This document shows positions 5,101 through 58,359 of a stretch of DNA of 64,000 nt, one piece after another (position 1 is the first letter of the stretch; every line of letters starts with the position of its first letter). Under the pieces are notes generated by a model. The model worked only from the letters and a program-made list of their open reading frames with translations, was not told the DNA's origin and did no database searches. Origin of the DNA: Escherichia coli. GTDB lineage: Bacteria; Pseudomonadota; Gammaproteobacteria; Enterobacterales; Enterobacteriaceae. The stretch lies in assembly GCF_003790525.1 (NCBI RefSeq), contig NZ_CP033635.1, one strand, 5' to 3'. The position numbers and the translations under genes were made by a program.

Positions 5101-5424
5101 ATGCGTAATAGCCATAACATTACACTAACAAATAACGACAGCCTTACTGAGGATGAAGAAACCACATGGTCACTGCCTGGTGCCGTGGTCGGTTTTATCT
5201 CATGGTTATTTGCGCTGGCGATGCCGATGTTGATTTATGGCTCTAACACGCTGTTCTTCTTTATCTACACCTGGCCTTTCTTTCTGGCACTGATGCCTGT
5301 CGCGGTAGTGGTGGGGATTGCGCTGCATTCATTGATGGACGGAAAGCTACGCTACAGTATTGTTTTCACCCTGGTGACAGTAGGCATTATGTTTGGCGCA
5401 CTGTTTATGTGGCTACTGGGCTAA
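5101..5424 (+). CDS. ygbE: Inner membrane protein YgbE (DUF3561)
   Basis: 107-aa hydrophobic ORF in the conserved position between cysC and ftsB. Confidence 0.85.
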   Translation: MRNSHNITLTNNDSLTEDEETTWSLPGAVVGFISWLFALAMPMLIYGSNTLFFFIYTWPFFLALMPVAVVVGIALHSLMDGKLRYSIVFTLVTVGIMFGALFMWLLG

Positions 5425-8183: not shown

Positions 8184-9545
<1,362 letters not shown>

Positions 9546-9684
9546 AACGTGAGGAAATACCTGGATTTTTCCTGGTTATTTTGCCGCAGGTCAGCGTATC
9601 GTGAACATCTTTTCCAGTGTTCAGTATGGTGCCTTGCACGGTAATTATGTCACTGGTTATTAACCAATTTTTCCTGGGGGATAA

Positions 9685-10824
9685 ATGAGCGCGGGAAGCC
9701 CAAAATTCACCGTTCGCCGCATTGCGGCTTTGTCACTGGTTTCGCTATGGCTGGCAGGCTGTTCTGACACTTCAAATCCACCGGCCCCGGTCAGCTCCGT
9801 TAATGGCAATGCGCCTGCAAATACCAATTCTGGTATGTTGATTACGCCGCCGCCGAAAATGGGGACGACGTCTACAGCGCAGCAACCGCAAATTCAGCCG
9901 GTACAGCAGCCACAAATTCAGGCCACTCAACAACCGCAAATCCAGCCGGTGCAGCCAGTAGCTCAGCAGCCGGTACAGATGGAAAACGGACGCATCGTCT
10001 ATAACCGTCAGTATGGGAACATTCCGAAAGGCAGTTATAGCGGCAGTACCTATACAGTGAAAAAAGGCGACACACTTTTCTATATCGCCTGGATTACTGG
10101 CAACGATTTCCGTGACCTTGCTCAGCGCAACAATATTCAGGCACCATATGCGCTGAACGTCGGTCAGACCTTACAGGTGGGGAATGCTTCCGGTACGCCA
10201 ATCACTGGCGGAAATGCCATTACCCAGGCCGACGCAGCAGAGCAAGGAGTTGTGATCAAGCCTGCACAAAATTCCACCGTTGCTGTTGCTTCGCAACCGA
10301 CAATTACGTATTCTGAGTCTTCGGGTGAACAGAGTGCTAACAAAATGTTGCCGAACAACAAGCCAACTGCGACCACGGTCACAGCGCCTGTAACGGTACC
10401 AACAGCAAGCACAACCGAGCCGACTGTCAGCAGTACATCAACCAGTACGCCTATCTCCACCTGGCGCTGGCCGACTGAGGGCAAAGTGATCGAAACCTTT
10501 GGCGCTTCTGAGGGGGGCAACAAGGGGATTGATATCGCAGGCAGCAAAGGACAGGCAATTATCGCGACTGCAGATGGCCGCGTTGTTTATGCCGGTAACG
10601 CGCTGCGCGGCTACGGTAATCTGATTATCATCAAACATAATGATGATTACCTGAGTGCCTACGCCCATAACGACACAATGCTGGTCCGGGAACAACAAGA
10701 AGTGAAGGCGGGGCAAAAAATAGCAACCATGGGTAGCACCGGAACCAGTTCAACACGCTTGCATTTTGAAATTCGTTACAAGGGGAAATCCGTAAACCCG
10801 CTGCGTTATTTGCCGCAGCGATAA
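9685..10824 (+). CDS. nlpD: Murein hydrolase activator lipoprotein NlpD (LysM + M23 domains)
   Basis: 379-aa ORF, lipobox LAGC, Q/P-rich linker, LysM and C-terminal M23 region; recognised NlpD. Confidence 0.95.
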
Positions 10825-10886
10825 ATCGGCGGAACCAGGCTTTTGCTTGAATGTTCCGTCAAGGGATCACGGGTAGGAGCCACCTT

Positions 10887-11879
10887 ATGAGTCAGAATAC
10901 GCTGAAAGTTCATGATTTAAATGAAGATGCGGAATTTGATGAGAACGGAGTTGAGGTTTTTGACGAAAAGGCCTTAGTAGAAGAGGAACCCAGTGATAAC
11001 GATTTGGCCGAAGAGGAACTGTTATCGCAGGGAGCCACACAGCGTGTGCTGGACGCGACTCAGCTTTACCTTGGTGAGATTGGTTATTCACCACTGTTAA
11101 CGGCCGAAGAAGAAGTTTATTTTGCGCGTCGCGCACTGCGTGGAGATGTTGCCTCTCGCCGCCGGATGATCGAGAGTAACTTGCGTCTGGTGGTAAAAAT
11201 TGCCCGCCGTTATGGCAATCGTGGTCTGGCGTTGCTGGACCTGATCGAAGAGGGCAACCTGGGGCTGATCCGCGCGGTAGAGAAGTTTGACCCGGAACGT
11301 GGTTTCCGCTTCTCAACATACGCAACCTGGTGGATTCGCCAGACGATCGAACGGGCGATTATGAACCAAACCCGTACTATTCGTTTGCCGATTCACATCG
11401 TAAAGGAGCTGAACGTTTACCTGCGAACCGCACGCGAGTTGTCCCATAAACTGGACCATGAACCAAGTGCGGAAGAGATCGCAGAGCAACTGGATAAGCC
11501 AGTTGATGACGTCAGCCGTATGCTTCGTCTTAACGAGCGCATTACCTCGGTAGACACCCCGCTGGGTGGTGATTCCGAAAAAGCGTTGCTGGACATCCTG
11601 GCCGATGAAAAAGAGAACGGTCCGGAAGATACCACGCAAGATGACGATATGAAGCAGAGCATCGTCAAATGGCTGTTCGAGCTGAACGCCAAACAGCGTG
11701 AAGTGCTGGCACGTCGATTCGGTTTGCTGGGGTACGAAGCGGCAACACTGGAAGATGTAGGTCGTGAAATTGGCCTCACCCGTGAACGTGTTCGCCAGAT
11801 TCAGGTTGAAGGCCTGCGCCGTTTGCGCGAAATCCTGCAAACGCAGGGGCTGAATATCGAAGCGCTGTTCCGCGAATAA
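10887..11879 (+). CDS. rpoS: RNA polymerase sigma factor RpoS (sigma-38), full length
   Basis: ORF track start 10851 trimmed to ATG 10887 ([11 protein letters not shown]...), 330 aa; codon 33 is GAG (Glu). Confidence 0.96.
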
Positions 11880-11998: not shown

Positions 11999-12439
11999 CT
12001 ATTTGCTCATCATCTTGCGCACCAGCTGCATAAACAGCTCCTGCTCTTCTGCACTCAAACGCCCCAAAAATTCCTCATCCACACTGTCACCAATCGGTAT
12101 CGCCGCAGCAAGTACCTTTTCTCCTTCGGCAGTCAGCCAGACAAAGCGTCGCCGCTTATCAGCAGAGTCATGTTCTCGTCTGACTAAGCCACGATTTTCC
12201 ATTCGTGCCAACATTTCTGCCAGCGTTGCTTTGGTGCTGACGGCTGCTTCTATCAGTGCCACCTGTTCGATACCAGGTTTATCAGCAATGGCGCGCATCA
12301 CCGCGTACTGTGGTTTGGTCAGATCAGGTAACTCGTGCTGCCAGCGAGCCGTGTGCTGCTGAAAAAGCTGTCGTAACTGATGGAACGCTTTATTTCGTAA
12401 CGCCATGTAAACTCCGGGCAAACTATCTGCCGCTATCAT
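11999..12439 (-). CDS. MarR/SlyA-family transcriptional regulator
   Basis: 146-aa ORF with winged-helix region typical of the MarR family; divergent from the decarboxylase operon. Confidence 0.85.
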   Translation of the reverse strand: MIAADSLPGVYMALRNKAFHQLRQLFQQHTARWQHELPDLTKPQYAVMRAIADKPGIEQVALIEAAVSTKATLAEMLARMENRGLVRREHDSADKRRRFVWLTAEGEKVLAAAIPIGDSVDEEFLGRLSAEEQELFMQLVRKMMSK

Positions 12440-57766: not shown

Positions 57767-57859
57767 GGTGAGGTGGCCGAGAGGCTGAAGGCGCTCCCCT
57801 GCTAAGGGAGTATGCGGTCAAAAGCTGCATCCGGGGTTCGAATCCCCGCCTCACCGCCA
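57767..57859 (+). tRNA. serV: tRNA-Ser (anticodon GCU)
   Basis: 93-nt sequence GGTGAGGTGGCCGAGAGGCTGAAGGCGCTCCCCTGCTAAGGGAG...CGCCTCACCGCCA with long variable arm and encoded CCA. Confidence 0.95.
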
Positions 57860-57862
57860 TTT

Positions 57863-57939
57863 GCATCCGTAGCTCAGCTGGATAGAGTACTCGGCTACGA
57901 ACCGAGCGGTCGGAGGTTCGAATCCTCCCGGATGCACCA
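57863..57939 (+). tRNA. tRNA-Arg (anticodon ACG), copy 1
   Basis: 77-nt GCATCCGTAGCTCAGCTGGATAGAGTACTCGGCTACGAACCGAGCGGTCGGAGGTTCGAATCCTCCCGGATGCACCA. Confidence 0.95.
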
Positions 57940-58003
57940 TCTCTTACTTGATACGGCTTTAGTAGCGGTATCAAAAAATCTGCAGTAAAGTAAGTTTCCC
58001 GAT

Positions 58004-58080
58004 GCATCCGTAGCTCAGCTGGATAGAGTACTCGGCTACGAACCGAGCGGTCGGAGGTTCGAATCCTCCCGGATGCACCA
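58004..58080 (+). tRNA. tRNA-Arg (anticodon ACG), copy 2
   Basis: Identical 77-nt sequence. Confidence 0.95.
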
Positions 58081-58142
58081 TCTCTTACTTGATATAGCTT
58101 TAGTGGCGGTATCAATATCAGCAGTAAAATAAATTTCCCGAT

Positions 58143-58219
58143 GCATCCGTAGCTCAGCTGGATAGAGTACTCGGCTACGAACCGAGCGGTCGGAGGTTCG
58201 AATCCTCCCGGATGCACCA
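58143..58219 (+). tRNA. tRNA-Arg (anticodon ACG), copy 3
   Basis: Identical 77-nt sequence. Confidence 0.95.
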
Positions 58220-58282
58220 TCTCTTACTTGATATGGCTTTAGTAGCGGTATCAATATCAGCAATAAAATAAATTTTCCCGAT

Positions 58283-58359
58283 GCATCCGTAGCTCAGCTG
58301 GATAGAGTACTCGGCTACGAACCGAGCGGTCGGAGGTTCGAATCCTCCCGGATGCACCA
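58283..58359 (+). tRNA. tRNA-Arg (anticodon ACG), copy 4
   Basis: Identical 77-nt sequence. Confidence 0.95.

Follow-up and report, generated by a model that had tools for sequence, protein, structure and literature searches.

The nlpD gene of Escherichia coli carries a degenerate 24-bp tandem repeat that encodes QQPQIQPV-like octapeptides. An earlier note, made from the letters of this DNA alone, had proposed that an in-frame array of this kind can change its copy number by slippage. The locus raises the question of whether the number of units really differs between strains and, if it does, in which steps it changes and what this would mean for the protein. In-frame coding VNTRs are known in bacterial surface and envelope proteins, and TonB has a proline-rich spacer that spans the periplasm. 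We followed the nlpD repeat from a 64,000-nucleotide stretch of E. coli DNA, referred to here as the window, into the E. coli population. The repeat itself is an already known and ordinary feature: the 1994 paper by Ichikawa et al. (J Bacteriol 176:1630), as cited in PMC2736372, names a proline/glutamine-rich repeat in its title, and the NlpD repeat was also noted by Tidhar et al. 2009 (PMC2736372). When the window was compared with E. coli K-12, the repeat was found in the same gene, at the same position and with the same protein sequence, with no difference in kind.

The repeat is located between the lipid anchor and LysM of NlpD

The assignment of the gene to NlpD, made in the earlier note by reading alone, was confirmed by profile search. 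The open reading frame matched the NCBIfam NF008123 NlpD equivalog with 679 bits against a cut-off of 311, and the match covered residues 4-379 and the whole 365-position profile. The gene is flanked by a pcm equivalog upstream (8919-9545) and an RpoS equivalog downstream (10887-11879), and the same order, pcm - nlpD - rpoS, is found in the RefSeq annotation of matching genomes. Over 9685-10120 (436 nt) the gene is 100% identical to that of E. coli AR_0013, and the encoded protein is exactly that of K-12, named NLPD_ECOLI in the protein collection. The octapeptides had been placed between the lipoprotein anchor and the LysM domain, which agrees with the order of lipobox (aa 23-26), repeat (aa 66-89) and LysM (aa 123-165) in the translation (table 1). 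Residues G25 and C26 showed no variation across 33 orthologues. Where active M23 enzymes carry HxxxD and HxH motifs, the NlpD M23 domain reads, by inspection, NKGIDI and RLHFE, which suggests a degenerate active site.

Table 1. Coordinates of nlpD, its domains, the repeat units and the perfect direct repeats within the array (positions are those of the window).
Feature	Position	Strand	Evidence
nlpD coding sequence, 379 aa + stop; murein hydrolase (AmiC) activator lipoprotein	9685-10824	+	ORF list, NCBIfam NF008123, Pfam
Lipobox LAGC, aa 23-26; Cys26 is the lipidated anchor residue	9751-9762	+	read from translation
N-terminal linker, aa 27-122, lipid anchor to LysM, low complexity	9763-10050	+	composition; DISOPRED in PMC5533458
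Repeat unit 1 (u1), CAGCAACCGCAAATTCAGCCGGTA, QQPQIQPV	9880-9903	+	exact match, Tandem Repeats Finder
Repeat unit 2 (u2), CAGCAGCCACAAATTCAGGCCACT, QQPQIQAT	9904-9927	+	exact match, Tandem Repeats Finder
Repeat unit 3 (u3), CAACAACCGCAAATCCAGCCGGTG, QQPQIQPV	9928-9951	+	exact match, Tandem Repeats Finder
Degenerate unit 4 (u4), CAGCCAGTAGCTCAGCAGCCGGTA, QPVAQQPV	9952-9975	+	14/24 identity to unit 1, same 3' end
CAACCGCAAAT, left copy; 11-nt perfect direct repeat, 48-nt spacing	9883-9893	+	direct-repeat search; hybrid units in EC4115, AMSHJX01, PapRG-04-4
CAACCGCAAAT, right copy, 48-nt spacing	9931-9941	+	direct-repeat search
CAGCCGGTACAG, left copy; 12-nt perfect direct repeat, 72-nt spacing	9895-9906	+	breakpoint of 72-bp deletion
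CAGCCGGTACAG, right copy, 72-nt spacing	9967-9978	+	breakpoint of 72-bp deletion
LysM peptidoglycan-binding domain, aa 123-165	10051-10179	+	Pfam PF01476, E = 2.7e-12
Apparently degenerate LytM / M23 domain, aa 279-372, amidase-activating	10519-10800	+	Pfam PF01551, E = 4.6e-33

Several further observations concern the gene and its surroundings. RefSeq/PGAP annotation uses a TTG as the start of nlpD, 45 nt after the classical ATG, so that the protein has 364 instead of 379 aa (window 9685-9732) and its signal peptide lacks the positively charged N-region; the record of strain 300033 keeps the 1140-nt form. The 15-aa NlpD length differences seen in databases result from this alternative start annotation and are unrelated to the repeat. 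Five to six of 5,426 complete E. coli genomes had zero match to the 5' part of nlpD. In O55:H7 DEC5A, the sole match to the nlpD 5' query was 49 nt inside an unrelated gene, and the region may have been lost or rearranged in these five to six genomes. A 67-aa open reading frame on the opposite strand (9872-10075), antisense through the repeat, was given no weight, as it lies wholly inside the confirmed nlpD. Directly downstream of rpoS, a 146-aa open reading frame occupies 11999-12439 on the minus strand; a MarR-family regulator is annotated at the matching position in the genomes compared, and we take this frame to be the start of the rpoS-mutS region, variable between E. coli strains.

Three units form a degenerate in-frame array

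All three consecutive 24-bp units described in the earlier note are present with the sequences it quoted, but the coordinates given for them, 9886-9957, were 6 nt too high, the true positions being 9880-9951. Units 1-3 stand head to tail, occur once each in the window and are in frame with nlpD; together with the degenerate unit 4 they encode aa 66-97. Tandem Repeats Finder called one array with a 24-nt period at 9880-9955, with 3.2 copies, 72% matches and a score of 83. The outer units resemble each other most (u1/u3, 21/24 identical), followed by u1/u2 (17/24) and u2/u3 (15/24). Searching for self-matches of at least 33/48 at lags 6 to 60 singled out the repeat as the unique such place in the 64-kb window. 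The periodicity of the nlpD repeat is above chance: the observed value was reached in 0/2000 codon shuffles of the whole linker, in 21/2000 shuffles restricted to Q/P-rich codons and in 5/20000 shuffles at the peptide level.

Only two other tandem arrays in the whole window scored at least 50, a CRISPR array and a tRNA array. The CRISPR array spans 220-492 and continues beyond, with the 29-nt repeat GTGTTCCCTGCGCCAGCGGGGATAAACCG present at least five times and 32-nt spacers; the repeat resembles that of E. coli type I-E. The tRNA array at 57767-58359 consists of tRNA-Ser(GCT) followed by four tandem tRNA-Arg(ACG) with a period of 139-141 nt, and is the top-scoring tandem repeat of the window (Tandem Repeats Finder score 919).

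Within the nlpD array, perfect direct repeats reach a length of 9 nt at lag 24, of 11 nt at lag 48 and of 12 nt at lag 72, in agreement with the step sizes seen in the variants described below. The 11-12-nt repeats spaced by 48 and 72 nt exist because u1 and u3 are nearly identical and because u1 and u4 share their 3' end. The 72-nt pair of CAGCCGGTACAG is found in alleles like that of the window, where unit 1 ends GTA, while the K-12-type allele has a 7-nt direct repeat, GTGCAGC, at lag 48. Within the repeat, the K-12 allele and the window differ by three synonymous DNA changes. The window carries a rarer synonymous allele, with only 41 of 5,340 matched genomes at least 99% identical to it over 92 nt spanning the repeat. 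Eight codons are polymorphic among E. coli alleles, four of them purely synonymously, and the three differences between u1 and u3 are all synonymous as well. Because u1 and u3 differ only synonymously and half of the polymorphic codons (4/8) vary only in this way, the constraint on the repeat is at the level of the peptide rather than of the nucleotides.

Junction probes detect rare length variants of nlpD

We scored copy number in 5,426 complete E. coli genomes with 113 junction probes, which represent all -24, -48, -72, +24 and +48 bp products whose microhomology is 3 nt or longer, built on ten E. coli allele backgrounds. The probes shared zero 28-mers with 13 wild-type-length alleles, namely the ten backgrounds and three from other Escherichia lineages. 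Both previously found variants, Z142-6 and PEC411, were picked up again, a positive control for the screen. Matches were obtained in 82 of the 5,426 genomes. When the screen was repeated minus the main probe family for the 48-bp deletion, 23 genomes matched, and 18 of these were counted as false positives: 17 of the UTI89/NU14/UM146 group and 2017-02-2CC. The nlpD genes of UTI89 and 2017-02-2CC were read directly and are of wild-type length, with an allele outside the wild-type set; the other 16 genomes were taken as wild-type length from their UTI89-like match pattern, among them AH21F008 with a one-piece full-length match. In-frame length variants of nlpD were thus counted in about 64 of 5,426 genomes (1.2%), a number that rarer or more complex variants may escape, as the probes cover microhomologies of 3 nt or more on ten backgrounds.

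This result overturned the picture of a near-invariant array given by BLAST with wild-type queries of 436, 146 and 92 nt. With megablast and blastn, these queries matched 5,338 to 5,420 of the 5,426 genomes at 80% coverage or more and left 2-4 odd genomes; the only outliers were Z142-6, with a 72-bp deletion, and PEC411, with a 48-bp deletion. The BLAST summaries merge two aligned pieces, and in-frame indels of 24-72 bp then leave coverage and identity unlowered. The apparent near-invariance is explained by these two-piece joins, which masked 48-bp deletions while keeping coverage at or above 80% and identity high. A 371-aa clustered protein that had been considered a repeat variant shorter by 8 aa was only C-terminally truncated.

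Copy number changes by 48 or 72 bp

In the most common variant, present in about 59 genomes, 48 bp are deleted and units 1 and 3 are joined into a hybrid (CAGCAACCGCAAATCCAGCCAGTG), the one full unit that is left. We read it directly in EC4115 and AMSHJX01, where the hybrid unit CAGCAACCGCAAATCCAGCCAGTG is followed by u4 in a protein of 363 aa. Its carriers include O157:H7 strains EC4115, TW14359, SS17, SS52 and JEONG-1266 and Argentine cattle isolates, and also many isolates outside O157, which come from chicken, humans and other hosts. The 48-bp deletion of PEC411 and PEC145 has its breakpoint elsewhere, in GTGCAGC. In Z142-6 and USMARC-49610, 72 bp are deleted between the copies of CAGCCGGTACAG, which removes the degenerate u4 as well, leaves one full unit and gives a protein of 355 aa. 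The baboon isolate PapRG-04-4 carries a 48-bp duplication, u1-u2-(u3/u1 hybrid)-u2-u3, with five units and 395 aa. Every variant is in frame and encodes a full-length NlpD of 355, 363 or 395 aa. In a collection of 15 billion proteins, the exact variant proteins were found on at least 1000 contigs for the O157:H7 48-bp deletion and on 160, 38 and 6 contigs for the others; Shigella boydii and S. dysenteriae entries found in the protein collection have the 379-aa form.

Alleles of ±24 bp were found in none of the 5,426 genomes by the 54 of 113 probes aimed at these products, despite the 9-nt microhomology at lag 24. With the four-unit allele of E. albertii as query, no four-unit E. coli genome was found, the best matches all being 24 nt shorter than the query. 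Comparison across strains therefore does not give one constant number of units: E. coli has 1, 3 or 5, and the claim that copy number can change survives the comparison by which the earlier note had proposed to judge it. The claim of slippage is narrowed by the same data, as the in-frame variants in about 64 of 5,426 genomes differ from the wild type by 48 or 72 bp and never by 24 bp.

Because all variants are in frame, rare and largely clonal, with full-length NlpD kept throughout, we rejected the idea of a phase-variable contingency locus.

The variants are mostly clonal and arose on several backgrounds

Variation at the nlpD repeat is rare and mostly clonal. Outside the deletion, the nlpD gene of EC4115 equals the wild-type-length gene of O157:H7 FRIK944 at all other 1,092 positions. 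The 48-bp deletion is not found in FRIK944, RIMD 0509939 and other O157:H7 genomes, and with the gene otherwise identical it looks like a marker of one O157:H7 sublineage. We assume that these one-unit O157:H7 strains possibly correspond to clade 8 or lineage I/II. In the literature searched, we found no report of a published nlpD length polymorphism in O157:H7.

The other carriers of length changes sit on different backgrounds. AMSHJX01 and ECCWS199 differ from EC4115 nlpD at 9-10 sites, and PEC411 nlpD is identical to that of K-12 except for the deletion. Z142-6 and USMARC-49610, the pair with the 72-bp deletion, share an identical nlpD on a separate background, and the duplication is on yet another. 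Taken together, the nlpD sequence backgrounds indicate that the length changes go back to five or more independent events.

The crisp octapeptide array is largely restricted to Escherichia

We then looked at the repeat outside E. coli. E. whittamii and two other Escherichia sp. lineages have 3 units. The orthologue of E. albertii shares the octapeptide and the period of 24 bp with the window, and has four full units compared with three, in a protein of 386 aa. In Citrobacter, Salmonella, Enterobacter, Kosakonia, Buttiauxella and others, the linkers are 82-106 aa long and contain about 2 degenerate Q/P-rich units, and one Enterobacteriaceae isolate has its own three-unit array. Yersinia is without the repeat region (PMC2736372). 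The crisp octapeptide array thus appears to be largely Escherichia-specific and to have formed on an older Q/P-rich spacer whose length drifted.

Breakpoints point to misalignment of direct repeats

The crossovers of the length variants fall within CAACCGCAAAT (11 nt, lag 48), GTGCAGC (7 nt, lag 48) and CAGCCGGTACAG (12 nt, lag 72). CAACCGCAAAT explains both the common 48-bp deletion and its reciprocal product, the 48-bp duplication. We infer a slippage mechanism from these breakpoints: copies of a direct repeat would misalign, by replication slippage or short-homology recombination, and such misalignment would now and then delete or duplicate 48 or 72 bp with the frame kept. The resulting one- or five-unit alleles would then persist in lineages. 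The lack of single-unit changes fits a longest lag-24 repeat of only 9 nt and neighbouring units that are identical at only 15-17 of 24 positions.

Compared with known systems, the nlpD repeat is like coding VNTRs in that its units stand head to tail, have a length that is a multiple of three and differ in copy number between strains. It is unlike them in that its degenerate units agree at only 15-21 of 24 nt (62-88%) and the variation is rare (1.2%) and mostly clonal; changes by single units were not found in nlpD with the 54 probes aimed at them. Like the spacer of TonB, the nlpD repeat is a low-complexity, proline-rich periplasmic spacer.

The octapeptides belong to a long linker of low complexity

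Residues 27-100 of the linker are 41% P+Q and 80% disorder-promoting, with zero aromatics and almost no charge. Disorder of the NlpD linker was predicted with DISOPRED by Tsang et al. (PMC5533458). An AlphaFold2 model built with 33 close orthologues had a mean pLDDT of 34, with even the M23 domain below 50, and was too poor to judge disorder. In the shortest natural allele, 72 residues are left between Cys26 and LysM, or about 22-26 nm when fully extended. LysM is the septal localisation determinant of NlpD (PMC5533458).

The importance of the linker has been addressed by El Rayes et al. (bioRxiv 10.1101/2021.01.05.425367), for whom NlpD was one of three outer membrane (OM) lipoproteins studied, its linker beginning right after the lipidated Cys. 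When linker residues 29-64 were deleted, about 60% of NlpD stayed in the inner membrane and the chaining phenotype was complemented less well, and the linker is needed for efficient Lol-dependent OM sorting of NlpD (bioRxiv 10.1101/2021.01.05.425367). That deletion ends just before the repeat block (66-97), which stayed in place.

From the composition of the linker, the breakpoints and the population data, we consider it highly probable that the repeat is a Q/P-rich spacer in the apparently unstructured NlpD linker, with a length that is changed by rare in-frame misalignment of direct repeats. The octapeptides would act as a spacer in a flexible tether between the lipid anchor and the two domains, LysM and degenerate LytM. 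Composition and approximate length of the spacer would matter, and the exact unit count would not. Judging by their persistence, the length variants are probably near neutral. The spread of the one-unit allele in O157:H7 could reflect hitch-hiking or selection.

Alternative readings of the repeat

One alternative is that the number of units is functionally tuned. The octapeptides would then form a polyproline-II-like rod that sets the reach of the LysM and degenerate LytM domains from the outer membrane, and the alleles of different lineages would be adaptive. Conservation of the peptide while synonymous sites vary speaks in favour of this, as does the presence of the one-unit allele, on at least 1000 contigs, in an apparently whole O157:H7 sublineage. 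Tsang et al. propose that the distance to peptidoglycan could regulate NlpD (PMC5533458), and for RcsF linker length and disorder matter in sorting (bioRxiv 10.1101/2021.01.05.425367). However, Tsang et al. also point out that long linkers make it unlikely that anchoring alone limits reach (PMC5533458), and even the shortest allele retains 72 linker residues. Genera differ in linker length (82-106 aa), and Yersinia does without the block. The 48-bp deletion, moreover, recurs at low frequency on unrelated backgrounds, as neutral slippage predicts. We therefore regard tuning of the unit number as unlikely.

A related and rather improbable idea concerns the one-unit O157:H7 allele only, which would be non-neutral if its tether, shorter by 16 residues, altered NlpD sorting or AmiC activation and thereby envelope or cell-separation properties.

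It is very doubtful that the repeat acts as a DNA or RNA element, as a structure or binding site for nlpD-rpoS expression, with the peptide being incidental. In favour of such an element is that nlpD and rpoS form an operon with an rpoS promoter inside nlpD (PMC5533458). However, there were zero Rfam matches in 9400-11000 at E up to 1, and the RNA fold of 9860-9990 had z = +0.77, with 155 of 200 shuffles at least as stable. The main rpoS promoter presumably lies several hundred nt downstream of the repeat, and the units vary synonymously with the peptide kept.

It is hardly credible that errors of sequencing or assembly in a repetitive stretch produced the length variants. Some are indeed single or come as pairs from one study (PEC411 and PEC145; PapRG-04-4), but the array is just 96 bp and thus below read length, and many complete genomes that were sequenced independently carry the O157:H7 deletion (EC4115, TW14359, SS17, SS52 and others). 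Each exact variant protein is, moreover, encoded on between 6 and at least 1000 contigs, which come from several sources.

Significance

The repeat itself is not new, and its polymorphism in the population, including the O157:H7 deletion, is a small addition to what was known. For degenerate repeats, the nlpD array suggests that it is the spacing of the longest perfect direct repeats (48 and 72 nt in this case), and not the apparent 24-nt period, that determines which unit slips. The 48-bp in-frame deletion of the O157:H7 sublineage can be scored by simple PCR and is a possible lineage marker. Natural one-unit and five-unit alleles, one of them lacking u2-u4 entirely, suggest that the block is a dispensable spacer, and these alleles may help in designing linker mutants that address the reach of NlpD to peptidoglycan. 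Should the one-unit allele turn out to be non-neutral, NlpD linker length would be a tunable trait in Escherichia, where E. albertii has 4 units and the alleles of E. coli have 1 full unit, 3 or 5.
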